Assembly (NCBI GenBank): GCA_041598875.1
Contig: JBFHXP010000002.1
Location: forward strand, 13,716 to 77,715
DNA from: Desulfobulbales bacterium
GTDB lineage: Bacteria > Desulfobacterota > Desulfobulbia > Desulfobulbales > BM004
DNA length: 64,000 nt
Direction: 5' to 3'
Every line of letters begins with the position of its first letter. Position 1 is the stretch's first letter. A model generated the notes under the pieces. It made no database searches. It saw nothing but the letters and a program-made list of their open reading frames with translations, and was not told where the DNA came from. The translations under genes and the position numbers were made by a program. Shown here piece after piece: positions 17,067 to 59,243 of the stretch.

Positions 17067-17090
17067 ATCATTATTCTAAGGATAAAGGGA

Positions 17091-18620: not shown

Positions 18621-18682
18621 TACTCTTCTGCTGTCTAAGAGTGAAACAACAACACACTGGAAGGATAAACTAAGGAAAAACA

Positions 18683-20107
18683 ATGAAAACGGCACTGTTC
18701 CTCCCCGAATTATTCCTCCTTTTGAGCGCACTTGTGCTCTTTGTCCTTTCCCTGGGAAAAACCGCGCCCCGGACAGCGCGCTCTATCACCACCAGCCTGG
18801 CGGTGATCAATGCTCTCCTCTGTTTTCTTTCCCTGGGAAATCAGGGAGAACTCTTTTTTGCAGCATACCGGATCGATCAGTTCTCTCAACTTTTCAAACT
18901 CTTGATCATGTCCGCGTTCGCCTTTCTGCTTCTCTTTACCACAGAACTCAAGGGAATCCGGGAAGATGTAAAGACAGAGTATTATCTCTTCATGCAGTTA
19001 AGCGTCCTCGGCCTGGTCATGCTGGTCAGTTCTGTTGAGCTGCTTTCCATTGTTGTTGCCCTCGAACTCTCCTCCTTTGCCCTCTATGTGCTGGTCCCGA
19101 TGCGGACGGAACGGGCAGGGCTGCACATCCAGATGGAAGCGGGGATAAAATACATTCTGTTCGGCGTGGTCGCCACAGGGATCATGCTTTTTGGCATGAG
19201 CTATCTTTTCGGACTCACCGGGACGACCTACCTCCACGAACTTATCCCCTCAATCGCGGCAATCGGAGCAACCCCGGCAGTGATTGTCGGCGTGCTGATG
19301 GTCATGGGTGGCTTCTTTTTCAAACTCGGAATCTTTCCCTTTCACTTCTGGCTCCCCGACGTGTACCAGGGCGCATCCAATGAAACCACCACCTTCATCG
19401 CCTCGGTGCCAAAACTTGGAGCGGTGGCACTCCTTATCCGGGTGGCGATGCTGGCCCCGGCTGACAACGGGCTGAGCACCTTGCTGGCAATACTTGCGAT
19501 ATGTTCGATGTTTTACGGTAACCTCTCCGCCCTGGTCCAGAAAGACATCAAGCGGATGCTCGGATTCTCCGGTATCGCCCACGCCGGTTTTGTTCTGCTC
19601 GGTATCCTGACTCTCCAGGAAACAGGGTATGCCTTTGCCATGTACTACATCACCGGGTATGTGATAATGAACCTGGCCTGTTTCATGGTGATATGCACCG
19701 TCTCTTCTGATGGGGAAAACGTTGAGATCAATGACCTGACCGGGCTCTACAAAAGATCACCGCTTCTTGCAATTACCCTGACCGTGAGCATGTTCGCCCT
19801 GGCCGGGATCCCGCCTTTTGTCGGCTTCATGGGCAAATTCATGCTCCTGACCAATGCCCTGGAAAACGGCTACCTCCCGTTTGTCATTATGGCGGCGCTC
19901 AACACCGCCATCGCCATCTATTACTACCTGTCGGTCGTGCGGATCGCCTACTGCACCCCGGCTGATGACGACACCCGATCCGGGCTCGATGTTTCCCTCT
20001 CAACCAGCATGGCGGGCATAGCCCTGATGGTCCTGATCGTCATGCTCGGGGTGATCCCGGAGCAGATAGTTGATATCGCCCGAACCGCGGTACAGAGCAT
20101 CATGTAG
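18683..20107 (+). CDS. nuoN: NADH-quinone oxidoreductase subunit N
   Basis: 474 aa. Contains FPFHFWLPDVYQGASNETTTFIASVPKLGA and MLGFSGIAHAGF. Confidence 0.9.
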   Translation: MKTALFLPELFLLLSALVLFVLSLGKTAPRTARSITTSLAVINALLCFLSLGNQGELFFAAYRIDQFSQLFKLLIMSAFAFLLLFTTELKGIREDVKTEYYLFMQLSVLGLVMLVSSVELLSIVVALELSSFALYVLVPMRTERAGLHIQMEAGIKYILFGVVATGIMLFGMSYLFGLTGTTYLHELIPSIAAIGATPAVIVGVLMVMGGFFFKLGIFPFHFWLPDVYQGASNETTTFIASVPKLGAVALLIRVAMLAPADNGLSTLLAILAICSMFYGNLSALVQKDIKRMLGFSGIAHAGFVLLGILTLQETGYAFAMYYITGYVIMNLACFMVICTVSSDGENVEINDLTGLYKRSPLLAITLTVSMFALAGIPPFVGFMGKFMLLTNALENGYLPFVIMAALNTAIAIYYYLSVVRIAYCTPADDDTRSGLDVSLSTSMAGIALMVLIVMLGVIPEQIVDIARTAVQSIM

Positions 20108-45121: not shown

Positions 45122-45252
45122 TATCGCGGGAAACACCTGCGCGAAATCAAACGCACCCTGCACCGAGAGGTCCGGTTCCGTCACCTGCGAAAAGATCTCC
45201 GGCCCGTCCGCTGGTGTCCCGGACGGGCACACGAACCCGTTTCCAGCAAAGA

Positions 45253-47331
45253 TCAGGACAAGAGCTTCTCGCCCCCCGGCGATGAGATAAACACCTTGAG
45301 GGCGCCAACAATCGCCGGATCATACCTGGTGCTGTCTTTTGCCAGGATCTCGATGGCCTCCCTGGGAGCCAGGGCGGAGCGGTAGGAGCGCGGCCGGCTC
45401 ATGGCGCAGAAACTGTTGGCCACGGCAAGGACCTTTGCCGTCACCCGAATCTGATCGCCCTTGAGACCTTGGGGATAACCGCTGCCGTCACTGTTTTCAT
45501 TCATCTGGCAGATGGTTTCCGAGACTGGAAGTTCGAACTCGATGTCCCGGAGGATATCCTCGGTATACTGCACGTGTTTCTGCATTTCCAGCTTCTCGGC
45601 ATCGGTCAGCTGGCCCGGTTTTGACAGGATCGCCTGGTCGACAAAGACCTTGCCGACCTGGGAAAGATAGGCTGCCAGTTCCACCGTGGCCTGCTCCTGC
45701 CCGTCAAGGCCAAGCTCCTTGGCCACGGCCTTTGAGACAACGCTCATCATTCTGGAATGGCCGGCGAGATAGGGATCCTTCATCTCTATGGTCTTGACAA
45801 AGGCGTTGATTGTCTGCCTGATGGTGCGCTCATTTTTCTCCTGGGCCTCCACCAGATGGGTAATATCGGTAAAGACCGAAACAATACCGGTGATCTCGCC
45901 GGCAGAATCGACAAAGGGGATCTTGGTGATCATCAGGTAATGGAGTTTGGAAAGAAGATAGATCTTTTCGCTGACCGTGACCGGCTCCTTCTTCTGCCGG
46001 ACCTGTTCATCGCTTACCTGAAGCCTTTTCGCGGTGTCATAGCCGAAAACGGCGCGGTCATCCGAGCCGATGATACTCTCCATCTCGCTGTCTACCGCCC
46101 GGGCAAAGGCCGGATTGACATACTGGTAATTGCCGGCATGATCCTTAAAGCCGATGTAGTCGGTAATAGTCGAATTGATGCTGTCCAGGAACTGGCGCTG
46201 GTTTTCAATCTGACCGGCAAGCTCCTTGAATGTCACGGCAATCTTTTTGTTCTCCACACCGATCAACCGCCACCAGGCAGCACCCAGAAGAAGAACCAGG
46301 GCCACCAGGCCAAGAACCGCGATGGCCACAAAGCTCCGCCGGTATTGCCTGAGCGGCCCGTTTGCGCTCTCATAGTCGGTTTCCTGGACAACCCACCAGT
46401 CAAGCTCCGGGACCTTCTGGCCCAGGGAATAGACCATGGTATCGCCCTGCACCGACCGGCGGACCCCGTAGGCCATCCGCCCCTGGTCATTGAGCTCAAT
46501 CGCCTCTATCTCCAGGAGGCCGGATGGGGCCCAGGGGACAATCTCATGAAAGACCCCGTCATCAACCTGAACCAACCGGGCGCGCTCTCCCTCCTGAAAA
46601 AGCGGGGAGACCGCGAGAAGCTCGTCCATTTTCTGGGCAACGATCTTTGACAGCATGAGTACGGCCACCGGATCCGAGGGATTGTCGGTGGCGCCATGCG
46701 GCGGCAGGATCGGCAGATAGATATCGAGCACCATCCCCTTGCTGGTCGACCGCAGGGGCGCGAAACGGATCTCGCGGGAGCTGAACACCGATTGGGCCAG
46801 ATCTTTCTGCCGGGCAGAAAGGGCGATGGTGGAGCTGTCGGTGGCAATATAAGACTGGCCGTTGCGATTGATGACCCGGCCATCGAGAAAACCGGAGTAC
46901 TGGACAAACTCGCTGAGCAGGTTGGTCATCATCGGCAGCTGCTCGGCAAGGCCATCGCCCACCCCTTCCGCCATTCGCTGCGGGTACAGATGCTGGTTAA
47001 CGATGATCGAGACGTCTTCCTCGTGGAGATCGATTTCCGCGGCATAGAGGCGGAATATCTCGGACTGGATAATCCGGTCGCCCTGGGCGGCAAGACCGGC
47101 GAGCCAGGTGGAAATGACCTCCGCGCGGCTATTGGCCAGCAACTCAACCCGTTTTTCCGTGGCCTTTTCCAGTTCGCGGGTCCGGTCGGCTATGTTCAGC
47201 CTGACCAGGAAAAATGCCGCGGCAGACAGGATGATGAGTAAAGGTATGCCCACCTGAAAGACTCTGGCCTTAAGGCCGGCAGGTGACTCAATTTCGTGGC
47301 CCAGGGCTGCTTTTATGATCTGCTTGTCCAT
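45253..47331 (-). CDS. Transmembrane Cache-like/PAS protein with a degenerate HD-GYP domain
   Basis: ORF 45253-47382. ATG 47331 (MDKQ) has a GAGGGG RBS and lies 23 nt after the BTLCP stop. Two TM segments flank a periplasmic region of about 285 aa ending LDWWVVQETDYE (Cache-like), followed by a PAS-like segment. The C-terminal domain reads GHSRMM...AAYLSQVGK...QKHVQY...QMNENSDGSGYPQGL...VANSFCAM. Confidence 0.8.
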   Translation of the reverse strand: MDKQIIKAALGHEIESPAGLKARVFQVGIPLLIILSAAAFFLVRLNIADRTRELEKATEKRVELLANSRAEVISTWLAGLAAQGDRIIQSEIFRLYAAEIDLHEEDVSIIVNQHLYPQRMAEGVGDGLAEQLPMMTNLLSEFVQYSGFLDGRVINRNGQSYIATDSSTIALSARQKDLAQSVFSSREIRFAPLRSTSKGMVLDIYLPILPPHGATDNPSDPVAVLMLSKIVAQKMDELLAVSPLFQEGERARLVQVDDGVFHEIVPWAPSGLLEIEAIELNDQGRMAYGVRRSVQGDTMVYSLGQKVPELDWWVVQETDYESANGPLRQYRRSFVAIAVLGLVALVLLLGAAWWRLIGVENKKIAVTFKELAGQIENQRQFLDSINSTITDYIGFKDHAGNYQYVNPAFARAVDSEMESIIGSDDRAVFGYDTAKRLQVSDEQVRQKKEPVTVSEKIYLLSKLHYLMITKIPFVDSAGEITGIVSVFTDITHLVEAQEKNERTIRQTINAFVKTIEMKDPYLAGHSRMMSVVSKAVAKELGLDGQEQATVELAAYLSQVGKVFVDQAILSKPGQLTDAEKLEMQKHVQYTEDILRDIEFELPVSETICQMNENSDGSGYPQGLKGDQIRVTAKVLAVANSFCAMSRPRSYRSALAPREAIEILAKDSTRYDPAIVGALKVFISSPGGEKLLS

Positions 47332-47354
47332 TTTCCCCTCGCTCTGCTCTGTCG

Positions 47355-48107
47355 TTATTTCTTCAATGGAATATGTGCCCAACGGCTCAACTCATCGAAT
47401 GAATACTGTGCAACATAATGTTTGTATCTGGTGTGCTCAAAGACGCCATCAGTCAAATTATCAAGGATATAGATAGTCTCATCGAGGTACACCGCCAGCA
47501 CCGCATGGGCAATATTCCTGATGGTGTCCCGGACAATCACCACCCGCAGCTGGCCGGGGGCAAACCCCAGTTCCCTAAAGACAAAATATTTGGTGATGCT
47601 GTAATCCTCGCAATCCCCCGAGAGTTTGAGAAACTCCTGGGGGGTCGCCCAGTAATCACCAACCCCGTAGACATCCATATCAAGCCGGTAGGGCCATTTA
47701 TTCACATAGCGGCTGACGAATTTCAACTGCTCGAACCCTTTCAGGGAACGCGCCTGGGCGATCAACTCCTGCCAGCTGGCCGCGCCGGGAGGACACCCCC
47801 CAGAGGCCGATCCGCAGCTGTTCAGGGCCCGCACCTGCTCCTTGACGCTGCCGAGTATCCGGAGCCATTGGGTCAGAACCTTGTGCGATCCCTTGAATTC
47901 AATGGTATCAAGCAGCAGGATCCGTTTCTCCCCCGCGCCTGCATCCTGTTCACTGCCCTGACCCGGTCCGGGCATGGCAAGACCCGCCAGCAGCAATGAT
48001 AATAAAACCACCCTGACGATCACCAACCGACTCCAGCGGCTGCCATGCAAGAGAGAGTGAGCAATATGAGGCATAGAAGAAAAAGCCCTGGAATCGTTTA
48101 AGAACAT
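47355..48107 (-). CDS. Bacterial transglutaminase-like cysteine protease (BTLCP, LapG family), periplasmic
   Basis: 250 aa. Signal peptide, then GDCEDYSITKYFVFRELGF (Cys), HAVLAVY (His) and ILDN (Asp), which is the LapG-type triad context. Confidence 0.8.
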   Translation of the reverse strand: MFLNDSRAFSSMPHIAHSLLHGSRWSRLVIVRVVLLSLLLAGLAMPGPGQGSEQDAGAGEKRILLLDTIEFKGSHKVLTQWLRILGSVKEQVRALNSCGSASGGCPPGAASWQELIAQARSLKGFEQLKFVSRYVNKWPYRLDMDVYGVGDYWATPQEFLKLSGDCEDYSITKYFVFRELGFAPGQLRVVIVRDTIRNIAHAVLAVYLDETIYILDNLTDGVFEHTRYKHYVAQYSFDELSRWAHIPLKK

Positions 48108-48188
48108 CTTAAAAAATCACCCTCATTCTTCAAAATATCCTTATTTTTGTGCCCCACGGTAGTCCCGGCAAATGGACACTGCCGGGTC

Positions 48189-49508
48189 TCATCGTTCCCT
48201 GAGGGCATTCTGCCTGGCCTTGATGATCGGTTTCAGCAGGTACTCGAGAACCGTTTTTTTCCCGGTCAGGATATCGACGCTTGCGGTCATCCCCGGAATG
48301 ATGGGCAGTTTTTCCCCCCGGTAATTGATCGCATTGGTTGTGGTTCTCAGCTTGACCATGAAAAATTTTTCCCGCCGGTCATCCTCAATAGTATCGGCGC
48401 TGATCTGCTCGACAAACCCTTCCAGGCCGCCATATATGCCATAATCATAGGCAGTGATTTTGACCATGGATTTCTGTCCCGGGTGGAGAAAAGCAATATC
48501 CGCCGGCCGGATTTTCGCCTCGATGAGCAGGGTTTCATCCAGGGGAATGATTTCCAGAATCGACTCCCCGGGCTTGACCACCCCGCCGAGGGTATTGATG
48601 TAGATCTTCTTGACCGTGCCGCGGACCGGCGACCGGACATCCGTTCTGGTTGCCCGGTCCTGCCCGGCAACATTCGCCTCGAGAAGTGATTTCAACTCGC
48701 CCCGCTTCTTGTTCAGTTCAGCCGCTGCCGTTGATTTAAATTCGGCACGGCGCTGCGCCTGGCGGCGCTTGATCTCCTGGGCCGCCTCAACGGCGCGGGG
48801 GATGTTCAATTCCAGGCTTTGTATCTCACCGGTAATGGAATTGATCTCGCGCTCAAGGGAGAGATACTCAACCTTGGGAAATAATTTTTTCTCCACAAGA
48901 GGGGTGGCGATGGCCACCTGCTCCCTGGCCAGTTCGAGGTTCTTTCCCAACTGATCCTTCTTGCTCTCCATCCCGCCTATCTCCTGCATCTTCTGCTGGT
49001 ACTGGGAGTTGAGGATGTTCAGCTCAAGCTGCAGTTGCTCCTTGCGGGCCGCATAGATCTGTTTCTGATCCATGACGATCTGCGGGTCATGTCGGGCAAT
49101 TTCGGCCGGCAGGGAGAGTTCCTGCTCGTTCACCTCCGCCTCCAGCCTGGCAATGGACGCCCGGTGCTCCATTGACTGGGAAAAAGAATCCCGATAATGG
49201 CTGGCAGCCTGTTCATTGCTCAGGCGGACAAGGATATCACCCGGCTGGACAATCTGGTTTTCCCGAACCATGACCTCCTCGAGAATACCCCCCTCAAGAT
49301 GCTGGATGACCTGAACATGACGGGAGGGGATAACCTGTCCGCTGCCCCGGGTCACCTCGTCAAGAACAGCGTAATGGGCCCAGGCGACAAAACAGATAAC
49401 GAGCAGGCAGACCGCAAACGAGAGGAGATAGGCCGCGGAGTTCCCGTGGCGCTGCAGGGCGCTGCTCACCTCGTCCATAAATTCCGCATCCGTTGTTTTT
49501 CTGCTCAC
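48189..49508 (-). CDS. HlyD-family type I secretion membrane-fusion protein
   Basis: 439 aa. N-terminal TM, long coiled coils, and a C-terminal ...PGMTASVDILTGKKTVLEYLLKP typical of HlyD/LapC. Confidence 0.88.
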   Translation of the reverse strand: MSRKTTDAEFMDEVSSALQRHGNSAAYLLSFAVCLLVICFVAWAHYAVLDEVTRGSGQVIPSRHVQVIQHLEGGILEEVMVRENQIVQPGDILVRLSNEQAASHYRDSFSQSMEHRASIARLEAEVNEQELSLPAEIARHDPQIVMDQKQIYAARKEQLQLELNILNSQYQQKMQEIGGMESKKDQLGKNLELAREQVAIATPLVEKKLFPKVEYLSLEREINSITGEIQSLELNIPRAVEAAQEIKRRQAQRRAEFKSTAAAELNKKRGELKSLLEANVAGQDRATRTDVRSPVRGTVKKIYINTLGGVVKPGESILEIIPLDETLLIEAKIRPADIAFLHPGQKSMVKITAYDYGIYGGLEGFVEQISADTIEDDRREKFFMVKLRTTTNAINYRGEKLPIIPGMTASVDILTGKKTVLEYLLKPIIKARQNALRER

Positions 49509-49579
49509 TCTGCTCTCTTCCCGAAATAGCTGGTTTTCATCCAGAACAAAAACCGTTCCGGACAGACACCCGCCTAAAA

Positions 49580-51853
49580 TTACGCCTGGCCCGGAACATG
49601 CTGCTGCCTCTGTTCTTTCAGGAACTCCAAGACCTTATCCCTGGGACCATCCACCAGAACCCGGCCCTTTTCCATCACAATCAACCGATCGACAAGCGTG
49701 AGCATTGACTGGCGGTGCGAGACAACAACCAGGGTCTTCTGTTTGAGAACAGAGGCCAGGCGGGACTTGAAAAGCGCCTCCATCAGTGTATCCATGCTGC
49801 TGGTCGGCTCGTCGAGAAGCACAATATCAGGATCACGGACCAGGGCCCGGGCAACGGCAACCGCCTGACGCTGGCCGCCGGAAAGGTTCATGCCCCGCTC
49901 GCCGACCTGAAGCCCGAACCCGGCCGGGTGATTTCGTACAAAATCAGTGACCCCGGCAACGGTTGCTGCCCAGAGAATGGCCGCATCATCAGCAAAAGGC
50001 GCGCCAAAGGCGATATTCTCCCTGATGCTGCCATAAAAAAGATATTTGTCCTGCGATGCATAGCCGATTTTCTGCCGCAACTCGGCCACATCGAGCTGCC
50101 TGATATCCAGACCGCCGACCATGACGCTGCCCGAGGCAGGGGTGTAGAGCCCGAGAATCAGGCGGCCCAGGGTACTTTTGCCGGATCCCATCGGCCCGAT
50201 GATCCCAACTTTTTCTCCGGCGCTGATGTGCAGGGTAACGGTATCCAGGGCCTTGAGTTCGGAACTGGGATAGGAAAAAGAGACCCGGTCAAATGTGATG
50301 CTGCTGCCGATTTTACCATGATGCACATACTCCCTGCCATCGGGCCTCTCGCTGGGGATCTCCATGACCATGTTGAGCGATTTGAGGGCCATGCGCGACT
50401 GCTGCAGCCGGGTCAGCATTGCCGCCACCGCACCCAGGGGGGCCATTGCCCGGCCGACCAGGATGGTGCAGGCGATGAGCCCGCCCATGGTCAGAACCCC
50501 TTCCTTGATCCGAAATACTCCCCAGACGATGACCGCCACACTGACCAGCTGGGTGGCAAACTGTGAAAAGGTGATGGAAAAGGTTGCCAGTGATTTTGCC
50601 TGGGCCGAAGAGCGGGCATTCATGCCCACCACGCTCTCCCACCGCCCCTGGACTCTGCTCTCGGCAGTGCTGGTCTTGATCGTTTCAAGCCCGTTGATCG
50701 CCTCGACAAGAATGGCATTTTTCTGGGCCGACTCCCTGAAACCCTTTTCTATCGCCCGCTGAAATGGAAACTGAATCAGCACGCCAACCAGAATGACAAC
50801 CGGCACGGCAATGGCAGGGGCATAGGCAACCGGGCCGCCGATAAAGGAGACCAGGAGAATAAAAAGCACAAGAAAAGGGATATCCACCAGGGAAAGAAGG
50901 GTGGTGGAACTGAAGAACTCACGCAGTGATTCGAATTCGCGCAGGTTGTTGACCATGGAGCCGGTGGAATCGGGTTTATGGTCCATCTTGATTGCCATAA
51001 CGTGCTGCAGGAGACGACTGGCAAGGATAACATCGGATTTTTTCCCTGCCATATCAACGAAATACCCGCGCAGCAGACGAAGGAGAAAATCAAAGACATA
51101 GGCAATGCACACCCCCACCGCCAGGACCCAGAGGGTCTCAAGGGCATTGTTGGGCACCACCCGGTCATAGACATTCATCACAAAAAGCGGCCCGGCAACA
51201 CCCAGTATATTGATAACAATACTCGCGAGAAGGACATGCTTATAGAGAGGATAAAAGTGGCCGATCGTGCCCCAGAACCATCTCTTGCCCTTGAGCAGTT
51301 GCAGTTTACTGGCCCGGTCATCCAGACGGCCCCTGGCCTGGACAAAAAGCGCCTTGCCGGTATAGAGCGGCTGCAGGGTTTCCAGGGGAACGCTCTGACT
51401 GGTGTCCGGGGTCTCGGCAAAGATCACATCGGCCATGTCCGAGTGTATCCCGCCCAGAACGCAGCTGTTGCCATCCTTTAACAGAAGGATGCACGGCAGA
51501 GTCAGAGGGTTGATCCGGGCTATGGCCGGCCGCTTGAGAATTCGGGCATTCATCCCAGCCTGTTCCGCGGCCCGGACACAGAGATGGGGTGAAAAATCCT
51601 GACCGCTGAGGGGCAGCGAGGCAAGCAGCGCGCTGATTGAAACACTCCTGCCCTTGAGCCTGAGGAGTGTCTCGAGACAGGTCAGCAGGGGAGGCCGCGG
51701 GTCGGCGCTCTGACCGGACGACGGGGCAGCAGAGAGATCGACCTGGCCGGCCCGCTGGGTTGCATTTCCCTGAGAGTCAACAGGGCGAGTCCCGTGGTCA
51801 CCCTTTTCCGGGCCCATGGGTTCTGTTTCCTGAACTGAAGAGGAGGTCTGCAT
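49580..51853 (-). CDS. Type I secretion ABC permease/ATPase with an N-terminal C39-like domain (LapB/LssB-like)
   Basis: 757 aa. C39-like region (LLTCLETLLRLKG...), six TM segments, Walker A GPMGSGKST, signature LSGGQRQ and Walker B IVLLDEPTS. Confidence 0.9.
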   Translation of the reverse strand: MQTSSSVQETEPMGPEKGDHGTRPVDSQGNATQRAGQVDLSAAPSSGQSADPRPPLLTCLETLLRLKGRSVSISALLASLPLSGQDFSPHLCVRAAEQAGMNARILKRPAIARINPLTLPCILLLKDGNSCVLGGIHSDMADVIFAETPDTSQSVPLETLQPLYTGKALFVQARGRLDDRASKLQLLKGKRWFWGTIGHFYPLYKHVLLASIVINILGVAGPLFVMNVYDRVVPNNALETLWVLAVGVCIAYVFDFLLRLLRGYFVDMAGKKSDVILASRLLQHVMAIKMDHKPDSTGSMVNNLREFESLREFFSSTTLLSLVDIPFLVLFILLVSFIGGPVAYAPAIAVPVVILVGVLIQFPFQRAIEKGFRESAQKNAILVEAINGLETIKTSTAESRVQGRWESVVGMNARSSAQAKSLATFSITFSQFATQLVSVAVIVWGVFRIKEGVLTMGGLIACTILVGRAMAPLGAVAAMLTRLQQSRMALKSLNMVMEIPSERPDGREYVHHGKIGSSITFDRVSFSYPSSELKALDTVTLHISAGEKVGIIGPMGSGKSTLGRLILGLYTPASGSVMVGGLDIRQLDVAELRQKIGYASQDKYLFYGSIRENIAFGAPFADDAAILWAATVAGVTDFVRNHPAGFGLQVGERGMNLSGGQRQAVAVARALVRDPDIVLLDEPTSSMDTLMEALFKSRLASVLKQKTLVVVSHRQSMLTLVDRLIVMEKGRVLVDGPRDKVLEFLKEQRQQHVPGQA

Positions 51854-52315
51854 GGTTCAGTTATTCATCATAGGTGAGCATTGTTATTCTGACCTGACAC
51901 CTGAAGTGATAAAACCATACCCAGCAGAGACCTGTTCTGGCAACCGATATCACGATAACCCCTAACCCTTCAGAGACCCCTGGATGGATGTTTCCGGAAA
52001 AAAGGAAAACCCGACCCCTGCCACCCCAAAAGGGGTTTCCCTGCACCACGCCGCGGAACAAGTCTTGACAGCTTTCCTGATTACCACGAAACAACAAGAA
52101 CTTAAGGCACCATGGCGCCTCCGCGAACAGGGGGGGGACCCGCCAGGTTTACCCCAGGGCATGTTCACCTCTATCAGCCCACTTCCGACAATCCGGACAC
52201 TTTCCGGAAATCCACTCGAAAAAAACGAAAAAAACAGGTTCCGAAGTGACCGAAAAACCCGGCTCAAAAACTGATAACACTGATATTGCTCGAAAAAAAC
52301 AAACCCGGAAAAAGT

Positions 52316-52331
52316 TGGCCCGGAAATTGCT
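52316..52331 (+). promoter_or_regulatory. Candidate sigma-54 (-24/-12) promoter
   Basis: TGGCCCGGAAATTGCT matches TGGCAC-N5-TTGCW spacing exactly. It lies about 425 nt upstream of the PEP-CTERM gene. A TCCGGA-N5-TCCGGA repeat at 52192-52208 could be an activator site. Confidence 0.4.
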
Positions 52332-52755
52332 TTATTCTTATCAACCCTTCATACTCACTCGCCTGCTGCCAGGTCCCCTGAGGAGTATGTGTGCCCGCGG
52401 AGCGCAGATAAACGGTCTCACAAAAAAGCCAGATATGTATTGCACAAAAACGGAAAAAATGATAGTGATTTCTCCAGTCTCCTGATTCCAGGTGAAAATT
52501 AGTACATGCTTACACAACAAGATCACCAAAGAGCTTCTGCCCGATCCAGAGTTTGCTGTGCAGGAGGGGTAGTGCACCGCTTCGAACACACCGGTGGTTT
52601 TTTTCAGCAGAAACTAAAAGTCTAACCCAGCAGCAGAACCGCACGTTCGCGAGGCCGGATACTCCCCTTATGCCTGGAAATCTCTGGCGGGTGATATGAA
52701 CAGTGGCCCGGTGCTGTCTGTGTAGCGGTCCGAAAACTTATTTAGGGTATTTGCA

Positions 52756-53502
52756 ATGAAAACACGAGCACTCTTCCTGTCAGTTGGGCTGTCGATCCTT
52801 CTCCTCTCTTCCCCGGCATTTGGCTCGGCTTATACGTATAATGTATCGAGTGTGCGCGATACTGTCACCGGGGGAATGATGGATGGGCTGGAGGTGACTG
52901 CATACTATGAAAACGGCACATCTTCGAACGCATTCTGGGGATACCTGGGCGCACAACCAGGCGCGACCTCAGGTCGGGCTTATGTCTCTGACGGGTATCA
53001 ATTGTTTCAGGGTGGCAACACCTATCTTTCCAACTGGACGCTCACCAATAGCAGTACGAGCAAACTTATCTCCCTGACCATCCAGGGCATGGGCATGGAT
53101 TCAAATAATGAAAGACCACGGGCAAACGTTGTATTTGATTCATTTTATGGGACAGGAACCGGTGCTGACAAACGAACCCCCGGCTCCGAGTTGGGCAGGT
53201 TCATTGCAGATCCCCTTGGAACCAACCCGGTACCCGTTACCTTCCTCTTCTCGGATCCGGTCGCCCATAAGGGAACAGTCTATGGTGACCTCTATGCCAC
53301 CCTCACCCTGACATTTGGCGGGGGTGGTCTTGCGAAATATGATCGTACAACTGCACCAAATAATAAAATTGTTTTCACGGCTGACACGGACAGCATAACC
53401 CCGGTACCAGTGCCCGCAACCCTCTGGCTCCTGGGCTGTGGCATCCTCTCCCTGATCGGTTCAAGGAGAAAGACCGGCAGCAGCCCGCGCCTGAACGCAT
53501 AA
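52756..53502 (+). CDS. Secreted protein with a PEP-CTERM-like C-terminal sorting signal (VPVP variant)
   Basis: 248 aa. Signal peptide (…SSPAFG/S). The C-terminus has TPVPVPATLWLLGCGILSLIGSRRK, i.e. a Pro-rich motif, a TM segment and a basic cluster. Confidence 0.7.
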   Translation: MKTRALFLSVGLSILLLSSPAFGSAYTYNVSSVRDTVTGGMMDGLEVTAYYENGTSSNAFWGYLGAQPGATSGRAYVSDGYQLFQGGNTYLSNWTLTNSSTSKLISLTIQGMGMDSNNERPRANVVFDSFYGTGTGADKRTPGSELGRFIADPLGTNPVPVTFLFSDPVAHKGTVYGDLYATLTLTFGGGGLAKYDRTTAPNNKIVFTADTDSITPVPVPATLWLLGCGILSLIGSRRKTGSSPRLNA

Positions 53503-53539
53503 TATCCACAACGACCATATTTACGATTTGGAGACCGCC

Positions 53540-54769
53540 ATGCCAGAATTAAATGCTCCTGCCCAACCATCGACAGCCACCCGTGATAACCTGGTGCGGG
53601 TCGGCAAACCCCAGGCCGGCCAATCCTCGGCACTGGTCCTCGCCCCTGGCGCAGCCATAGCCCTTGACTTTGACATAACCGAGGCCGAGGCGATCCTGCA
53701 AAACGGCGCGTTGATCTTCCGCTTTGCCGATGACAGCGAGATCCAGCTGCAGAACTTTGAGGCCGTGCTTGCCAGCACCGAACTTATCCTTCAGGACGGC
53801 ACTGAAATAAGCGGCGACCAGGTGATGGGGGTTATCCAACCGGGCGGCGACGAACCTGCTGCCGGGCCTGGCTCGACAAGCGGCGGCGCCGGTGAATATG
53901 ACGACTATCTTGGCAGTATAACAGGCCCGATTGAGCGGTTGGGCACCCTTGACCCGCGGCAATTGACCGACCCCCAGACCGATCTCGAAGGGGGCGCGGG
54001 CTTGGTACCACCTGATCCGCCTGAGACACCCCTTGTTCTGGCCGATGACACGGATCTTCTGTATTATGACCGGATCTTGTCTGAACAAGGAGAATTTTCT
54101 GAAGTAGGCAAAATACTACCGATTCTCAAGATATATAATGCCGGGCCAGGCCCGGACGACACCCTCTATGACAGCCACACCCGGGGCAATGTACTGAGCA
54201 ACGACATCGGAGACGGCCTGCGGGTAACCGGCTTTACCCACAACGGTACGACATACGTTGCGGACGGATCGACCGTGACCCTGAGTTCCGGGGCCAGGTT
54301 TTCCCTTGGAGCGGACGGCTCCTACCGCTACGCCTATGATACCACCGAGACGGTTGATAGCACGCAGAGACCAAATTTTAGCACCCTGTCTTTCCCAGGA
54401 CTCAATGCCGGTCACGCTCCTGGACAGGACAAACATGCCATTGCCCGCATTGAGTTATCCGATCTGACCGATGATGACTGGCTCCAATTTGACTGGAGCG
54501 ATACTGCTGGCAACAAACATAATGCCGTATACCCTGAATTCGCCATCCAAAACAACACAGTAGAACTCTATGACCTTGACGGCTTTGCCAGCCTGGACAT
54601 CACGGTCCTTGCTGGGTCTGTCACTTTCGAATCACTCAAGGTGGAATACACCGATTCGACATTGACCAAAGAGACAATCCAGTACCAAGTGACAGACGCC
54701 TACGGCGCCAGCGGTTCGGCCAACCTTATCCTCGACTTTGCCGCAACCAACCCACCGCCCGTGGCGTAA
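53540..54769 (+). CDS. Candidate small LapA-like T1SS substrate/adhesin with a PAAG di-alanine site
   Basis: ORF 53528-54769. ATG 53540 has a GGAG RBS. No Sec signal peptide. The N-terminal LIFRFADDSEIQLQNFEAV region is followed by GGDEPAAGPGSTSGGAG. The C-terminus has a cadherin/VCBS-like YQVTDAYGASGSANLILDF. Confidence 0.5.
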   Translation: MPELNAPAQPSTATRDNLVRVGKPQAGQSSALVLAPGAAIALDFDITEAEAILQNGALIFRFADDSEIQLQNFEAVLASTELILQDGTEISGDQVMGVIQPGGDEPAAGPGSTSGGAGEYDDYLGSITGPIERLGTLDPRQLTDPQTDLEGGAGLVPPDPPETPLVLADDTDLLYYDRILSEQGEFSEVGKILPILKIYNAGPGPDDTLYDSHTRGNVLSNDIGDGLRVTGFTHNGTTYVADGSTVTLSSGARFSLGADGSYRYAYDTTETVDSTQRPNFSTLSFPGLNAGHAPGQDKHAIARIELSDLTDDDWLQFDWSDTAGNKHNAVYPEFAIQNNTVELYDLDGFASLDITVLAGSVTFESLKVEYTDSTLTKETIQYQVTDAYGASGSANLILDFAATNPPPVA

Positions 54770-54790
54770 CATCCGGTTTTATCTAAAAAA

Positions 54791-54822
54791 CCACATCCCA
54801 AAAAAACAGGGGTGTGGTTTTT
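54791..54822 (+). terminator. Rho-independent terminator after the 409-aa gene
   Basis: ccacatccc / ggggtgtgg stem (one G-U pair), 9-nt A-rich loop, then TTTTT. Confidence 0.7.
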
Positions 54823-54949
54823 GCGTGCCAGCGCGCATCACTGAATTGACATTCATTCAGCACGTGCAACTGGCGTTTTTTTTAAAAAAACAACTGATTT
54901 TAGAGGTGTACGCAAATAAAGGAGAACTCTCAATAGGGGAGAAGTTGCT

Positions 54950-56311
54950 ATGCATAAAAAAATCGCTCTATTCACCGCAATTGCCGTGGCCCTCATACAC
55001 CTGCCGCAGGTTTCATCTGCCGGAGAAACCGTGACAGTGCAACAAAGTGTGATAGATACCCTCACAACCAGCCCGCGCCTGGAAATGATGAAACATAATC
55101 GGACCGCGATCAACCATGACATGGCCAAGGCCCGGGGCGGCTATTTCCCGCAACTTGACGTTGTGGCCGGCTATGGTTTCGGCGCCCATAAAAGCCTGAC
55201 CACCCGAAATGCAGCGGCCACCGCCCCCTATGATGACGACTGGATGGCCCGCAGTGACGCCGCCCTGATTCTGCAGCAGCTTGTTTTTGACGGAAACGAG
55301 GTGAAAAGCCAGGTTGATATTGACCGATTCAAGATAGACTCGATCAATTACCGGGTATTTGACAATGCCGAGGCCCTGGCCCTTGATGCCGCCCTTGCCG
55401 CCCTTGAGGTCTATCGCCAGCAGGAACTGCTCAAGGTTGCCGAGGCAAATGTGGCGGCCCACGAAAAAATTCTCGAATCCCTCAAGGTTATAGAACAGGC
55501 CGGCGCCGGCAGCAGCGCCGATGTCATCCAGACCCGGGCCCGCCTTTCACGGACCATGGCCACCCGGATAACGGTGATGAGCGACCTGGAAACCGCCCTG
55601 TCCAATTTTGAGCGGTTGGTCGGGTATCGGCCGGATACCGTGCAGTTTCCCGAAAATGCCGATGCGGTCCTGCCGGCTTCCCAGGATGAAATTATCAATA
55701 TGGTGATAGCCTCCAACCCGAAATTCCTGGCAGCGGCCTCTGATATCAAGGTCGCCGGGGCGGTGGTCAATCTGGAGAAATCTAAATATTCCCCCAAAAT
55801 ATACCTGGAGGGGGTTCTGAAATATGAAGATGGTACCGATGGGGTGGAAAGCTGGATCAGAGACGAGGGAGTCATGGTCCGGATGCGCTGGAACCTGTTC
55901 AACGGCATGGCGGACGACGCCGCGGTCAAGGCGGCCAGGGCACGCAAACTGCAGGAGGAATTAAACCGGGAAGATATCATCAGAACCATTGCCAACGACA
56001 CCAGGGCAACCTGGTCCAGATACACTGCAGCGGTGCAAACGGAAAAGGCCTTTGCAGAAAACGTCAGCTTCAACGAAGAGACCCGGACACTGTACAGCGA
56101 CCAGTTCTCCATCGGCCAGCGAAGCCTTCTTGATCTTCTCGATGCTGAAAACGAGGCATTCCAGTCCCGGGGCCTCTACACCTCGGCCAAGGTTGACCGC
56201 GCGGCCACGGCCTATAAGCTTCTCGCCCTGCCCGGAAAACTCATAGATACGTTGGGCATCGATTCAGCTATCTACAAAGATCCCAAATATGAAAAGAGCA
56301 GGAAAAACTGA
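54950..56311 (+). CDS. TolC-family type I secretion outer-membrane channel (LapE-like)
   Basis: 453 aa. Signal peptide, then two tandem OEP-type repeats (…RGGYFPQLDVVAGYG…, …KYSPKIYLEG…). Confidence 0.85.
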   Translation: MHKKIALFTAIAVALIHLPQVSSAGETVTVQQSVIDTLTTSPRLEMMKHNRTAINHDMAKARGGYFPQLDVVAGYGFGAHKSLTTRNAAATAPYDDDWMARSDAALILQQLVFDGNEVKSQVDIDRFKIDSINYRVFDNAEALALDAALAALEVYRQQELLKVAEANVAAHEKILESLKVIEQAGAGSSADVIQTRARLSRTMATRITVMSDLETALSNFERLVGYRPDTVQFPENADAVLPASQDEIINMVIASNPKFLAAASDIKVAGAVVNLEKSKYSPKIYLEGVLKYEDGTDGVESWIRDEGVMVRMRWNLFNGMADDAAVKAARARKLQEELNREDIIRTIANDTRATWSRYTAAVQTEKAFAENVSFNEETRTLYSDQFSIGQRSLLDLLDAENEAFQSRGLYTSAKVDRAATAYKLLALPGKLIDTLGIDSAIYKDPKYEKSRKN

Positions 56312-56554
56312 TACCAAACGTGAAACTCTCGTAAAAAGTCATGGGATAGCTAAGTCAAAAAAACTTGATAACAGGCAAGCGAACCTGTGAGACTCCGAGG
56401 CGAAGTGATTTTTCAGGTGCGAGGCCATACATATAGAGGTCGTGCCTGAAAAATCACGGCAACGCGGGAGATCGGATTTATACGACGCCATCAGTCGATT
56501 CGTTGACTTCATACTTCAGCGGTTCAGCGTTCGATATACGATATTCAAAATGTA

Positions 56555-57331
56555 TTATCCCCTTTTCTCAGCCGCAAAAAGCGCGCCACCGGTATAGGGC
56601 GATGTCCGGAAAGGCGTTGCCCCGATATGCCGGACCCCGACAAACCCTGCCCGCTCCATCAGCATAAGTTGATCCCCCACGGAGACCGTTCCCCCTACTC
56701 ACTGGGCCCAGGCCTCAAGGCTGCCGACGAGGTGTGGGGGCAGTTCCGTTTCCAGTACAATATCCGCAAACTGCAGCCGTGCCGACGGTTTCAGCACCCG
56801 AAAGATCTCCTGAAATATTTTTTCCTTGTCCGGGACCAGGTTGATCACCCCGTTGGAGATGACCACATCAAAGGTCGAGTCGGCAAAGGGAATCGCGCTG
56901 TCGTTGACATGATGGATACGGGCATTTTCAATCAAGGCCGCGGCAAGATTTTTCCGGGCCCGTGCAACCATCTCCTCGGTCAGGTCAATACCATGGACAA
57001 AGCCATCAGGCCCGGCAAGGCGGGCGGCAACAACCACGTCAAAGCCGGCGCCATTGCCAATATCCAGCACCACGCTTCCCGGAGGGATCGTATTAATTGC
57101 AAAGGGATTGCCCACCCCGCAGAATGATGTCAGCAGCTCCGGCGGCAGCGCATCAAGCAGGGCCTTGTCATAGCCCAGGGCCTCTGCCCCCCGCCTGCCG
57201 GTGGGGTATGTGAACCTGCCGTCGGCAGAGACCGCCACCTCGGCATATTTGGCGCGAATCGCCGCCTGTATCCGGCCGATATCAACGGAAGAGATCGGCC
57301 CGCGACCGGCTTGCATATGAACCACGGGCAA
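56555..57331 (-). CDS. ArsM/UbiE-like SAM-dependent methyltransferase, candidate selenoprotein (in-frame TGA at 56699-56701)
   Basis: The 210-aa ORF has the SAM motif VLDIGNGAGFD, plus FCGVGNP. It ends ...LEAWAQ-TGA. The same frame then continues for 47 sense codons (VGGTVSVGDQLMLMERAGFVGV...) to TAA at 56555. TGA sits at the conserved W..C[IV].G position. Confidence 0.55.
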
Positions 57332-57545
57332 GGGGGATGCCGACCCGGCATCAGACCCCGGAGGTCAGCAGGGTGAGTGTACCTTTTTTTCCACTCGATC
57401 ATTCATGGCAACAACCCCTGGCAGTTCGTATTATCATTTCAGCTCCTCCGCCCCCGGGGGCAAACCGATAAGGTGTCTCTTCCATACCATAAACCAGCTA
57501 CCAAAAGGTGCCGGCTCGTTGATATGCAGCGAGCAGTGTAGCGCA

Positions 57546-58910
57546 TTACACCACGGTATCAAACAGAAAACGCATGGGATTTCGCCAGGTGAGAAGATCG
57601 ATAAGTTCGTTGCGGTCCGGAAGTACCTCCCGCCCGGCCCGGGGCACCTCGCAGGAACCTCTGCCATTTAAGGCGCCAATATCCATGGCTGCAACAAAGC
57701 GCGCGAAATACTGGTCATAGGTGGTAATCAATCCCCCATGTCCTGTGCCGAGAATCATGGGAATATCCGAGCCCCAGAGCAGTTTTTCCTTGAGCGTGCA
57801 GACCGGGTTTTCAATATCGAGCCTGTTGTCAAGCTCCCCGGCCTCATCAAGGGCAAGGAGCCAGCCCAACGCGGCCACCGCCCTGTGATCATTATAGTTG
57901 AACGCCGCCAGATCGGCATAGGTATTTTTGTATGTCTTGAGCAGCCGGATCAGAATGGCGGTCCAGGTGGTTTTTTTCAGCTTTGGCCGCGGAACCATCA
58001 TCGATGTTGCCATGGGAAACGGCGTCTCATCGTACTCCTCCTCCACCTGGTTAAAAAACACGGTCTTTTTCAACTCCTCTTCGCCGCCGAAATGGGCAAA
58101 ATTAATCCTGAAATCATCCGCCCTATCGCCCAGGGCATGCAGGACCGCCCGCCAGTTTGCCGGATGGGTAAAGGCATCTGCCTCCTTTTTTGTGATATCC
58201 TGGGCTGAATAGGAACCAGGCTTGGGCTGGCAATGGGTGGTTACCGGAATATTCCGGTCGCAGAACAGGGTATAGAGGGCCCGGTATTTTCTCGCAATGG
58301 CCGGGGAACCATCAGAGACGCTGTAGGGGTTGAAACCAATGGGCGGGTAGAGCTTGATCCCGATCGGCCTGCCGTTGCCAAGGCCACTGATATCAACCCG
58401 ACCCTGGACAGACCGCAGCACCTCCGCCCCGCACCTCTCTGCAAAGGTGTCAAAATCAGCGGCCAGGGTATCAAGCCGCCATGCCTGGACCTTGCGAAGA
58501 TCAAGACCGACAAAGGGGAGAAAAAGGGCGTCCCCGGCAAACTGAGTATCCCCTATCTCCGAGATCAACCTCTTTGCCTGATAATAGACATGGTCCTTCT
58601 GCGCCCCCTCAATTTCATCAAAGTCCATGATCAGGGGAGTAATGACCGGCCGGCGTCCTGTCAGCGGTGAATGGACGGCCAGCGCCTCGCTGATCTGTTG
58701 CGCCAGGATAACGGCATTATCCCGGGGCCTGCGGTCAAAAAAATTGATATAGCTCTCAAAATTCTTCAACTCCTTTTTATGCAGACCACAGAGAAATGCC
58801 AGGGCAAGAAGTGAGTTGGGCAGAAATCGCACGTTGCCCAGGGTGGGATAGAGGGGAATGTCCTCAATATTGAACAGATGACAATGGGAATCAATAAAAC
58901 AGGCGCTCAT
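57546..58910 (-). CDS. Amidohydrolase-superfamily (TIM-barrel metal hydrolase) protein
   Basis: ORF 57546-59024. ATG 58910 is the likely start (GGAGGGGGG RBS). The N-terminal FIDSHCHLF is an HxH metal motif. Function unknown. Confidence 0.55.
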   Translation of the reverse strand: MSACFIDSHCHLFNIEDIPLYPTLGNVRFLPNSLLALAFLCGLHKKELKNFESYINFFDRRPRDNAVILAQQISEALAVHSPLTGRRPVITPLIMDFDEIEGAQKDHVYYQAKRLISEIGDTQFAGDALFLPFVGLDLRKVQAWRLDTLAADFDTFAERCGAEVLRSVQGRVDISGLGNGRPIGIKLYPPIGFNPYSVSDGSPAIARKYRALYTLFCDRNIPVTTHCQPKPGSYSAQDITKKEADAFTHPANWRAVLHALGDRADDFRINFAHFGGEEELKKTVFFNQVEEEYDETPFPMATSMMVPRPKLKKTTWTAILIRLLKTYKNTYADLAAFNYNDHRAVAALGWLLALDEAGELDNRLDIENPVCTLKEKLLWGSDIPMILGTGHGGLITTYDQYFARFVAAMDIGALNGRGSCEVPRAGREVLPDRNELIDLLTWRNPMRFLFDTVV

Positions 58911-59243
58911 TTCCCCCCTCCTTATTCTCTGTTGCACCTTTCCGCCAACCGCTTTGCGGCCATTTGCGGCCAGTAAGGATCCGGAAATCCCCCCTCGCGG
59001 TATGGTTTCCCCGTCAGCCCACACAAACCTATATCCACGGAACTCTTTTCATTTAGCAGGATTAAAGCCTCTTTTCAAGGGATAAACCCGGACGGAGCAA
59101 GGATATCCCCTTATCGCCAAGGCCCCTTAAATCATCCTCCACGGCACGAAAAATCCTGGCTATTTACCAAGGCCAGGGGATAGTTTATAGAGGGTGTGGA
59201 TGGCGCCCCTTGACCATAATAATCTTCAGCAAAAAAACGAACA

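Follow-up and report, generated by a model that had tools for sequence, protein, structure and literature searches.

The question raised by this locus is where its protein begins and ends. In the 64,000 nucleotides of Desulfobulbales DNA that were analyzed (the window), an open reading frame of 210 codons related to ArsM-type methyltransferases lies on the minus strand (56699..57331); its C-terminal sequence ...HLVGSLEAWAQ is followed by TGA 56699-56701, which was initially annotated as a candidate selenocysteine (Sec) codon. Past this TGA the frame remains open for 47 codons (VGGTVSVGDQLMLMERAGFVGVRHIGATPFRTSPYTGGALFAAEKRG) and is closed by TAA 56555-56557, and these and the other sequence-level statements of that annotation about the reading frame all hold. 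It placed the start of the gene at 57331, however, and considered a single TGA codon, so that neither the true start nor the other Sec codon was recognized: the coding region reaches ATG 57404-57406 via another in-frame TGA at 57365-57367. Standard ORF calling cuts the resulting gene of 283 residues (Table 1) at both TGAs into pieces of 21, 221 and 47 codons. The outer boundaries recur in a relative that is 94% identical (L082), as the similarity between the two begins at the ATG and stops precisely at the TAA. It is very likely that the 210-residue ORF is part of an ArsM-related selenoprotein of 283 residues with two selenocysteines.

Table 1. Features of the methyltransferase gene and its predicted product (positions within the window)
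Feature	Position	Strand	Basis or remark
Methyltransferase CDS, 283 residues	56555..57406	-	ATG 57404-57406, Sec14, Sec236, TAA 56555-56557; from translation
Predicted Sec14, first in-frame TGA (TGA1); S-P-C-U-P-P-G	57365..57367	-	equivalent in-frame TGA in 59/77 assessable loci
bSECIS-like hairpin 1, GGGG-UCU-GAUGCCG-GGU-CGGCAUC-CCCC	57332..57359	-	apical loop GGU 19 nt past UGA
Pro/Gly/Ser-rich linker Sec14-Met31 (residues 15-31)	57314..57364	-	predicted disordered tether, continues to about residue 38-40
Cys96 in SFCGVGNP	57119..57121	-	invariant in alignments A1 and A4
SAM-binding motif I LDIGNGAGFD, residues 114-123	57038..57067	-	Pfam Methyltransf_31/25/11; aligned to ArsM structures
Gly186 in SNGVINL, second arsenic-binding Cys position (SNCVINL)	56849..56851	-	PDB alignments
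Predicted Sec236, second in-frame TGA (main site); W-A-Q-U-V-G-G, UxxG motif	56699..56701	-	TGA in 80/80 loci; Cys alignment
bSECIS-like hairpin 2, GGUCUCC-GUG-GGGGAUC	56671..56687	-	starts 11 nt past UGA, apical loop at 18 nt
Segment after Sec236, 47 codons, predicted to complete the methyltransferase fold	56558..56698	-	conserved in 80/80 loci

The main-site TGA and the segment beyond it

The main-site codon is TGA in each of the 80 related genomic loci, and the tblastn homology continues past it up to the C-terminus, reaching residues 249-253 of the 253-residue query with the frame maintained. The carriers belong to the Desulfobulbales, Nitrospirota, Brocadia, Methylomirabilia, Eisenbacteria, Uabimicrobium and Bacillus. 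Cultured bacteria with the gene include Desulfopila aestuarii DSM 18488 and Desulfosediminicola flagellatus. The codon aligns to the Cys of the GEC(L)GGA motif in the solved structures 5evj, 8xt7 and 5eg5 (the last a Cys mutant of CmArsM), an arsenic-binding residue, and the close homologues P0186, P0177, P0180 and P0163 have a Cys at this position, which makes it a Sec/Cys pair. The original observation that TGA falls on a conserved ArsM Cys is thereby substantiated, and the proposed comparison of orthologues gave TGA or Cys at this codon.

The gene callers and the RefSeq annotation of the family treat this TGA as a true stop, which would leave a truncated methyltransferase of 205-210 residues or a decaying pseudogene with a fortuitous downstream frame, and in line with such a reading no selA, selB, selD or tRNA-Sec was found in the 64-kb window using ARAGORN, Rfam and Pfam. 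We nevertheless consider a true stop most improbable. Orthologues that end at the TGA or carry frameshifts, named beforehand as evidence against a selenoprotein, were not seen: the 47 codons are kept without frameshifts in 80/80 loci from several phyla, and the similarity to L082 terminates at the TAA and not at the TGA. Furthermore, when homologue P0005 (with Trp at both Sec positions) was modeled with AlphaFold, the segment past Sec236 came out as a helix and two strands at pLDDT 90-99. As the Rossmann-like fold ends with this helix and this pair of strands, the 210-residue product would be incomplete. Public databases routinely truncate this methyltransferase family: the three RefSeq members that were looked up (WP_073614689.1, WP_151970430.1 and WP_184525773.1) are all 'methyltransferase domain-containing protein' entries of about 200 residues, with neither a Sec nor the two final strands of the fold. 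The Deltaproteobacteria have been described as a selenoprotein-rich phylum (PMC1976440).

That the UGA codons are read as a standard amino acid such as Trp or Cys, by reassignment or near-cognate suppression, is hardly conceivable. Although 19 database proteins have a W at both positions, these represent DNA stop codons that gene callers rendered as Trp on short contigs. Considering the fact that TGA closes 17 of the 32 Pfam-supported genes in the window, the codon has not been reassigned. Moreover, SECIS-type hairpins are predicted at both sites, and at the main site the residue found in homologues is Cys rather than Trp. Based on the Sec/Cys alignment, the presence of TGA in 80/80 loci and a covarying bSECIS-type hairpin, the selenoprotein reading of the main-site TGA is strongly supported by sequence comparison, and with it the proposal that a selenoprotein gene had been mis-called as a 210-residue ORF.

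Putative SECIS elements downstream of both UGA codons

At each UGA, SelB and Sec-tRNA(Sec) presumably carry out the recoding, brought in by a separate stem-loop immediately downstream within the coding sequence, i.e. a bacterial SECIS (bSECIS). The limits reported for such elements are an apical loop of 3-9 nt, an upper stem of 4-16 bp, a G in the first two loop positions, a distance from UGA to loop of 16-37 nt and an MFE of -7.5 kcal/mol or lower (PMC13188914, Fig. 2 legend). Compared with these limits by hand, hairpin 2, past the main-site UGA, has a stem (7 bp), a loop (GUG) and a spacing (18 nt) that are all inside the ranges. Its MFE is -8.3 kcal/mol in a segment of 36 nt and -11.7 in one of 45 nt, but only -6.8 for the bare hairpin of 17 nt, which is short of the limit. 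Across 81 sequences 92.1% of the cells are paired, a level reached by none of 500 shuffles, with compensatory changes at 6 of the 7 pairs and an invariant G at loop position 1; the inner 5 pairs were also recovered by RNAalifold. Among the homologues, the 36-nt segments past the main-site TGA are more stable than control segments from the same gene (Mann-Whitney p = 6e-29), whereas in the window alone the stability of hairpin 2 is about average for its gene (in-gene MFE comparison).

The two hairpins that had been suggested earlier for this site can indeed be drawn on the sequence, but neither is conserved. GGGGA-ACGG-UCUCC and CUCC..AUCA-loop-UGAU..GGAG are paired for 61.5% and 59.6%, respectively, over the 81 sequences, no better than shuffles; in addition, the former violates the spacing rule of 16-37 nt and the latter has no G at the start of the loop. 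A lack of any SECIS-like structure, which would have spoken against the initial annotation, was not observed, since the covarying hairpin was found at 56671-56687.

Hairpin 1, which follows the first UGA, has a stem of 7+4 bp, and its loop (GGU) and spacing (19 nt) fit the bSECIS rules as judged by hand. With an MFE of -16 to -17.4 kcal/mol it ranks in the top 2.6% among segments of the same size within the gene, and its codons show no substitution relative to L082. Homologues retain a hairpin past TGA1, often with a GGUC loop, that is paired for 70% and shows covariation above 500/500 shuffles (named-structure count), and their segments past TGA1 are likewise more stable than in-gene controls (Mann-Whitney p = 3e-16). 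RNAalifold returned no single consensus for the N-terminal element, because the register of the hairpin varies by lineage. In the window sequence alone both UGA hairpins are thermodynamically unexceptional compared with shuffles (z = -0.77 and -0.73); as the gene is GC-rich, folding energies of a single sequence are uninformative at such values (z about -0.75). The support for both putative elements comes from the comparison across homologues, and not from thermodynamics in the window.

The first TGA and the N-terminal arm

An arm consisting of Met, 12 residues and Sec could be recognized in 59 of the 77 loci that were assessable, while the remaining 18 lack it and still keep Sec236. The ATG lies exactly 13 codons before TGA1 in 44/60 sequences and is preceded by a Shine-Dalgarno consensus (GGAG-like, at -10 to -7). 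The stretch between TGA1 and the conserved core, which begins at about residue 38-40, varies from 18 to 47 codons among homologues. In the P0005 model, the N-terminal residues 1-40 are at pLDDT below 50. The arm is matched by no NCBIfam model, and no homologue with Cys in place of Sec14 was found among the related loci and close homologues.

Part of these data would also agree with a protein that has a single Sec and starts past TGA1, at Met31 in the window, in which case the upstream ATG-TGA and its hairpin would constitute a leader ORF or a regulatory structure of the 5'-UTR. The window does contain an ATG (Met31) as well as GTG/TTG codons after TGA1, and the arm is predicted to be disordered, is missing in 18/77 assessable loci and has no Cys counterpart. 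Nevertheless, we consider a start past TGA1 improbable. Met31 is replaced by Arg in L082, which retains the upstream ATG and both TGAs, and between TGA1 and the core no ATG occurs in 43 of 57 loci and no possible start codon at all (ATG/GTG/TTG) in 20 of them. The upstream ATG, TGA1 and the core always share one frame without TAA or TAG, with the ATG at its fixed distance and the Shine-Dalgarno consensus ahead of it, and hairpin 1 obeys the spacing and loop rules of bSECIS elements. Finally, U-P-P and the next Gly-rich motif are conserved as protein, with variation being higher at the third codon positions. On these comparative grounds, the N-terminal arm apparently carries a second and uncatalogued Sec position. 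It is absent from the 2026 selenoprotein inventory, and a mention in Haft and Tolstoy 2025 (mSystems 10:e0141724) is possible.

Relation to ArsM and to known selenoproteins

The predicted protein matches the ArsM/AS3MT structures 5evj, 8xt7 and 4fr0 in sequence, with E-values down to 5e-24, and a Foldseek search with the model of homologue P0005 returned ArsM structures as the top matches (TM about 0.65). Its score against NF008823 (ArsM, PRK11873) is 193.8 bits, below the cut-off of 263 bits. The pair of Cys residues that binds As(III) in ArsM is not present, as the GEC(L)GGA position would be occupied by Sec and the SNCVINL position is occupied by Gly186; in CmArsM numbering we take these positions to be Cys224 and Cys174, respectively. 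The Gly, which had been noted from the start (SNGVINL instead of SNCVINL), is invariant in the family alignments A1 and A4, including an alignment of 26 sequences. As to the first Cys context, which had been described as kept, SFCGVGNP is present and its Cys96 is invariant, but in the structure-chain alignment this Cys sits two residues ahead of the Cys in FWGCGNP of CrArsM (5evj). The Cys of the (F/Y)xGCG motif in the N-terminal domain of ArsM is Cys72. Judged from motifs and family scores, the protein is a SAM-dependent methyltransferase of an ArsM-related clade and not a canonical ArsM; the suspicion that it is probably no canonical arsenite methyltransferase agrees with the invariant Gly and the missed NF008823 cut-off.

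The genomic context offers no hint of the substrate. The neighbors of the gene in the window are a type I secretion cluster, a permease and an ORF of unknown kind, and there is no arsenic-resistance context (arsR or other ars genes) around it. When the flanking ORFs of 80 loci were clustered, none was common to more than 6 loci. Within the window as a whole, Rfam detected two tRNAs only.

As substrate, a soft metalloid or chalcogen (As, Sb, Se or Te) is probable. Sec236 would stand where ArsM has its As(III)-binding active-site Cys, the family appears to have lost the second metalloid-binding Cys (Gly186), and Sec14, 13 residues past the initiator Met, would sit on a Pro/Gly-rich tether that is predicted to be disordered. 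From this arrangement we infer that the tethered selenol of Sec14 might swing into the active site. There it could join Sec236 and Cys96 in binding the substrate, as a second soft ligand, or act as the resolving partner with which an Se-Se or Se-S bond is made in the course of turnover, comparable to the Cys44-Cys72 pair of ArsM. We would give even chances to the more comprehensive proposal that the arm carries a real second Sec and defines a widespread ArsM-like subfamily (Desulfobulbales, Nitrospirota) with two Sec residues and without Cys174, in which the selenols cooperate on a non-classical substrate. Cooperation could take the form of a diselenide/selenenylsulfide redox pair or of an Se/Se/S ligand set, and the metalloid or chalcogen acted upon would differ from the classical case of As(III) on three thiols. 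If true, this would constitute a natural family of two-selenol methyltransferases and a clean system to ask why Sec replaces Cys in metalloid-handling enzymes. The 59 N-terminal and 80 internal predicted elements, with their covariation, provide a test set for bacterial SECIS models.

Arsenite methyltransferase selenoproteins of the PRK11873/NF008823 type with one Sec in a UxxG motif are listed in Table 1 of PMC13188914, citing Fomenko et al. (2007, Science 315:387), and an arsenite S-adenosylmethyltransferase was recorded in the GOS selenoproteome (PMC2398784). UxxG selenoproteins of the ArsM type have thus been known since 2007-2008 and the Sec at the main site belongs to an already known family; since it rediscovers this family, the finding matters chiefly for annotation. 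What the analysis adds is a second Sec, predicted on an N-terminal tether that is disordered, in a protein that has lost one canonical arsenic-binding Cys. The known Sec-type ArsM shares the fold, the Sec position, the UxxG motif and an in-CDS SECIS just downstream with the window protein, but is inventoried with one Sec (PMC13188914), to which the window protein would add another on its N-terminal arm. From the ArsM of the NF008823 type it differs by the missed cut-off, the Gly at the SNCVINL Cys and the shift of the first Cys by two residues.

The best three NCBIfam matches are curated models of ArsM-type selenoproteins, which align across the main-site TGA: NF041537 (ArsM/AhpD), NF041536 (ArsM/DUF2284) and NF047649 (methyltransferase/UXPK-star), credited by PMC13188914 to Haft and Tolstoy 2025. 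The scores (292, 264 and 267 bits, respectively) miss the corresponding cut-offs (510, 575 and 460 bits), and the matches are limited to model positions 5 to about 249. Like the window protein as predicted here, these families have more than one Sec and their methyltransferase domain is matched as a whole, across the Sec codon. In contrast, their extra Sec resides in a C-terminal fused domain or tail (AhpD, DUF2284 or UXPK) and the models have no N-terminal arm, whereas the window protein lacks a C-terminal Sec tail, as the TAA comes right after the methyltransferase domain.

With the Cys-type enzymes (CmArsM 4fr0/4fsd/6cx6, CrArsM 5evj and human AS3MT 8xt7) the protein shares the class I SAM core and the ArsM-type substrate domain. 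These enzymes use three or four Cys residues; in the window protein Sec would replace one of these, Gly replaces another and a further one is displaced. Unlike these comparators, the window gene has no ars-operon context.

The Sec14 arm is reminiscent of the selenophosphate synthetase SelD, which has a Sec or Cys in a flexible Gly-rich N-terminal loop, in that a reactive Sec would lie within about 15 residues of the N-terminus; the fold and the chemistry are unrelated and the likeness is architectural only. As in the E. coli fdhF-type/bSECISearch consensus, the two predicted SECIS elements are stem-loops within the coding sequence with the loop 18-19 nt past the UGA and a G as its first letter. 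Both have a 3-nt loop and a 7-bp stem, all within the ranges given above; unlike that consensus, the predicted stems are short. The GGUC loop in many of the N-terminal elements of the homologues is the one that we take to be the loop of the E. coli fdhF SECIS.

The TGA at Sec236 and its hairpin

As called, the methyltransferase ORF contains both an SFCGVGNP and an SNGVINL motif and ends with ...HLVGSLEAWAQ, directly followed by a TGA. That the frame stays open beyond this TGA, for 47 more codons, had been claimed in the initial annotation and was confirmed by re-reading the ORF and the frame up to the TAA. TGA is the usual stop of 17 of the 32 Pfam-supported genes in the window, and therefore the code is not reassigned. 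A one-genome-per-species scan yielded 499 relatives, the best 80 of which were examined; these come from the Desulfobulbales/Desulfocapsaceae, Nitrospirota/Thermodesulfovibrionia, Brocadia, Methylomirabilia, Eisenbacteria, Uabimicrobium and Bacillus benzoevorans. All 80 carry a TGA at the Sec236 codon, within the context W-[SA]-[QDNH]-U-[IV]-G-G, and in all 80 the sequence and frame 3' of it are kept to the end of the protein. Other close homologues have an ordinary Cys at this position (e.g. ...DWFRCIGGAL in the database proteins P0186, P0177 and P0180), and alignment to solved structures places the codon on the Cys of GEC(L)GGA in CrArsM (5evj), human AS3MT (8xt7) and 5eg5, a CmArsM Cys mutant.

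Features of the methyltransferase locus and its surroundings
Feature	Position	Strand	Details
Upstream frame, start ATG	57404-57406	minus	MNDRVEKKVHSPC-TGA-PPGSDAGSASPLPVVHMQAGRG..., in frame with the methyltransferase
First TGA (Sec14)	57365-57367	minus	
N-terminal hairpin	57332-57359	minus	GGGG-UCU-GAUGCCG-GGU-CGGCAUC-CCCC; MFE -16 to -17.4 kcal/mol
ORF as called	56699..57331	minus	210 aa from TTG
Main TGA (Sec236)	56699-56701	minus	
Main-site hairpin	56671-56687	minus	GGUCUCC-GUG-GGGGAUC; 7 bp, columns 15-21/25-31, starts 11 nt past UGA
Terminal TAA	56555-56557	minus	
Upstream neighbour	57546-59024	minus	492-aa ORF, no Pfam match
11.4-kb block	45157-56554		type I secretion cluster
Two ORFs in this cluster	52756-53502; 53528-54769	plus	248 and 413 aa, no Pfam match
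Four consecutive ORFs	13551-20107	plus	492, 596, 509 and 474 aa; Proton_antipo_M

The 66 nt from the main TGA onward align without gaps in 81 sequences. A covariation analysis revealed a conserved, compensatory hairpin in this region, with 92.1% of the cells paired (n=81). Changes on both sides were found in six of the seven pairs (A-U to G-C in 24 sequences, C-G to U-A in 17); the values were matched by none of 500 shuffles and the signal was lost on sliding the partner. The inner five pairs were recovered independently by RNAalifold, the loop opens with an invariant G (n=81), and the hairpin lies within the published limits for a bacterial SECIS with respect to loop, stem, early-loop G and spacing (16-37 nt). 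The two hairpins that had been proposed originally were 61.5% and 59.6% paired, the same as shuffles, and neither is conserved. Judged on the window sequence alone, the main-site fold does not stand out (z = -0.77) and is close to the average for windows in its gene; across the homologues, windows that follow the main TGA clearly surpass in-gene controls in stability (p = 6e-29).

With a Cys put at the TGA, the best three NCBIfam matches were curated models of ArsM-type selenoproteins, NF041537 (ArsM/AhpD, 292 bits), NF047649 (methyltransferase/UXPK-star, 267 bits) and NF041536 (ArsM/DUF2284, 264 bits), each spanning the main TGA (residues 8-251). These families possess additional C-terminal domains that the window protein lacks, and because of this none of the three full-length cut-offs was reached. 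ArsM-type selenoproteins with a UxxG motif were already part of the GOS selenoproteome (PMC2398784), and a 2026 inventory, citing Fomenko et al. 2007, lists them as 'experimentally verified' with one Sec (PMC13188914). Considering the TGA in 80 of 80 loci, the Cys alignment and the covarying hairpin, the earlier claim of a selenoprotein with UGA at the ArsM Cys was right, and on this sequence evidence Sec236 is assigned as the selenocysteine of an already known selenoprotein family. In the AlphaFold model of the homologue P0005, whose nearest solved folds are ArsM structures (TM ~0.65), the 46 residues past Sec form a helix and two strands (pLDDT 90-99), so that the 210-aa product would be missing part of the methyltransferase fold.

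A candidate second selenocysteine in the N-terminal arm

New in this analysis, and missed in the initial annotation, is a second, N-terminal putative Sec (Sec14) with its own predicted SECIS. 'Full-length' database homologues are extended at the N-terminus and carry a second W there, in the context x-W-P-P-x-G-x-x-G-G; the window is arranged in the same way. Among the best 80 of the 499 relatives, an N-terminal in-frame TGA was present in 59 of the 77 assessable loci, three being cut by contig ends. An ATG lies exactly 13 codons 5' of this first TGA in 44 of 60 sequences, and a GGAG-like consensus occupies positions -10 to -7 before it. Between the first TGA and the conserved core, ATG is absent in 43 of 57 loci, and ATG, GTG and TTG are all absent in 20 of 57. 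The 94%-identical relative L082 has an Arg at the window's Met31 and keeps the upstream ATG and both TGAs; its similarity to the window starts at the upstream ATG and stops exactly at the TAA. The U-P-P and Gly-rich motif is conserved in the arms, and variation is highest at third codon positions.

Among in-gene windows the N-terminal hairpin ranks in the top 2.6%, and in homologues it frequently has a GGUC loop. By named-structure count it was 70% paired, with a covariation above that of all 500 shuffles, and in homologues the windows following the first TGA surpass controls in stability (p = 3e-16). RNAalifold gave no single consensus here, because the register of the hairpin relative to the codons varies by lineage; to judge from the sequences, this varying register argues for selection on RNA structure. 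Two weak points for Sec14 are that no Cys counterpart was found among the loci and homologues examined and that disorder is predicted for the arm (pLDDT <50 for residues 1-40 in the P0005 model). Of the 44 aligned arms, 19 have a Cys nine residues past Sec14 (U-P-P-S-G-G-A-G-G-C-R; residue 23), and these are mostly from Nitrospirota; the window and a few relatives have a Cys immediately 5' of Sec14 instead (C-U).

The N-terminal 54 residues matched no NCBIfam model (release June 2026), and the 2026 inventory splits the subfamilies by Sec position, with one Sec for ArsM and two or three for three C-terminal fusion families (PMC13188914). The N-terminal Sec is absent from both; it may have been mentioned earlier elsewhere.

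Relation to ArsM and annotation in databases

The suspicion that this is not a canonical arsenite methyltransferase was borne out: Gly is invariant where ArsM has the Cys of SNCVINL, and the window protein scored 194 bits against NF008823, below the cut-off of 263 bits. The first Cys is invariant but lies two residues before the Cys of FWGCGNP, and in Cys-type relatives of the SNG clade the Cys matching Sec236 is often the only one retained. No ars genes were found near the methyltransferase in the window, and no conserved neighbourhood among the best 80 of 499 loci. The methyltransferase is thus classified as ArsM-related and not as canonical ArsM, and its predicted non-canonical Cys complement is likewise new. 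Loci with the arm mostly have a Q directly before Sec236 (55 of 59), and those lacking it mostly have D, N, E or H there (16 of 18); that this residue tracks the arm suggests two co-evolving subfamilies.

A search of 5.8 billion proteins returned ~100 top matches of 179-220 aa, and all truncated matches that were aligned end with ...EAWSQ or a close variant. Nineteen 'full-length' matches show a W at the main TGA position, and for both of those whose DNA was fetched (2 of 19) the W residues are stop codons in the DNA. These W-containing proteins are gene-caller artefacts on short contigs, which probably stem from the caller choosing a genetic code with TGA as Trp. Both Sec TGAs are rendered Trp by public metagenome gene calls on short contigs in P0002-P0020, L084 and L085. 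Also new is that those family members that were checked are annotated in truncated form: in RefSeq (WP_073614689.1, WP_151970430.1 and WP_184525773.1; loci L051, L068 and L080) and UniProt, the proteins of Desulfopila aestuarii, Uabimicrobium amorphum and Bacillus benzoevorans are cut at the Sec codon to ~200 aa (197-213 aa), under the name 'methyltransferase domain-containing protein' or 'arsenite methyltransferase'.

Genomic surroundings and proposed mechanism

The window represents housekeeping chromosome (nuo, pntAB, feoB, mreBCD, polA, hemH) of a Desulfobacterota-type MAG; its NuoD shares a 90%-identity cluster with a protein labelled 'Desulfobacterales bacterium'. The genes selA, selB, selD and tRNA-Sec were not detected within its 64 kb by ARAGORN, Rfam and Pfam. 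The four Proton_antipo_M ORFs, in a nuo-like cluster, amount to one antiporter-like subunit beyond the usual NuoL/M/N set. The 11.4-kb block is missing from the ~96%-identical relative contig L082, where 361 bp take its place. It encodes an HD/PAS protein, a BTLCP peptidase, HlyD, an ABC exporter, a TolC-like OEP and the two Pfam-less ORFs, which may be secreted substrates; one of its breakpoints is exactly the methyltransferase TAA, and the block has the look of an island that was acquired or lost recently. The close relative L082 also has the 492-aa ORF directly 5' of the methyltransferase as its neighbour; more distant loci do not.

The evidence strongly supports a single product of 283 residues in which two UGAs are recoded, each with its own predicted hairpin on the 3' side. 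Sec236 could provide a substrate-binding or catalytic selenol adjoining SAM, and Sec14 might, on a flexible tether, replace the missing Cys as a ligand; the distance from the first TGA to the core is 18-47 codons among the loci, and thus the tether length varies. Alternatively, Sec14 might act as a resolving partner, akin to the Cys44-Cys72 disulfide step of ArsM. Our best guess for the substrate is a soft metalloid or chalcogen. The arm also resembles the flexible N-terminal loop of SelD, which bears Sec (PMC13188914).
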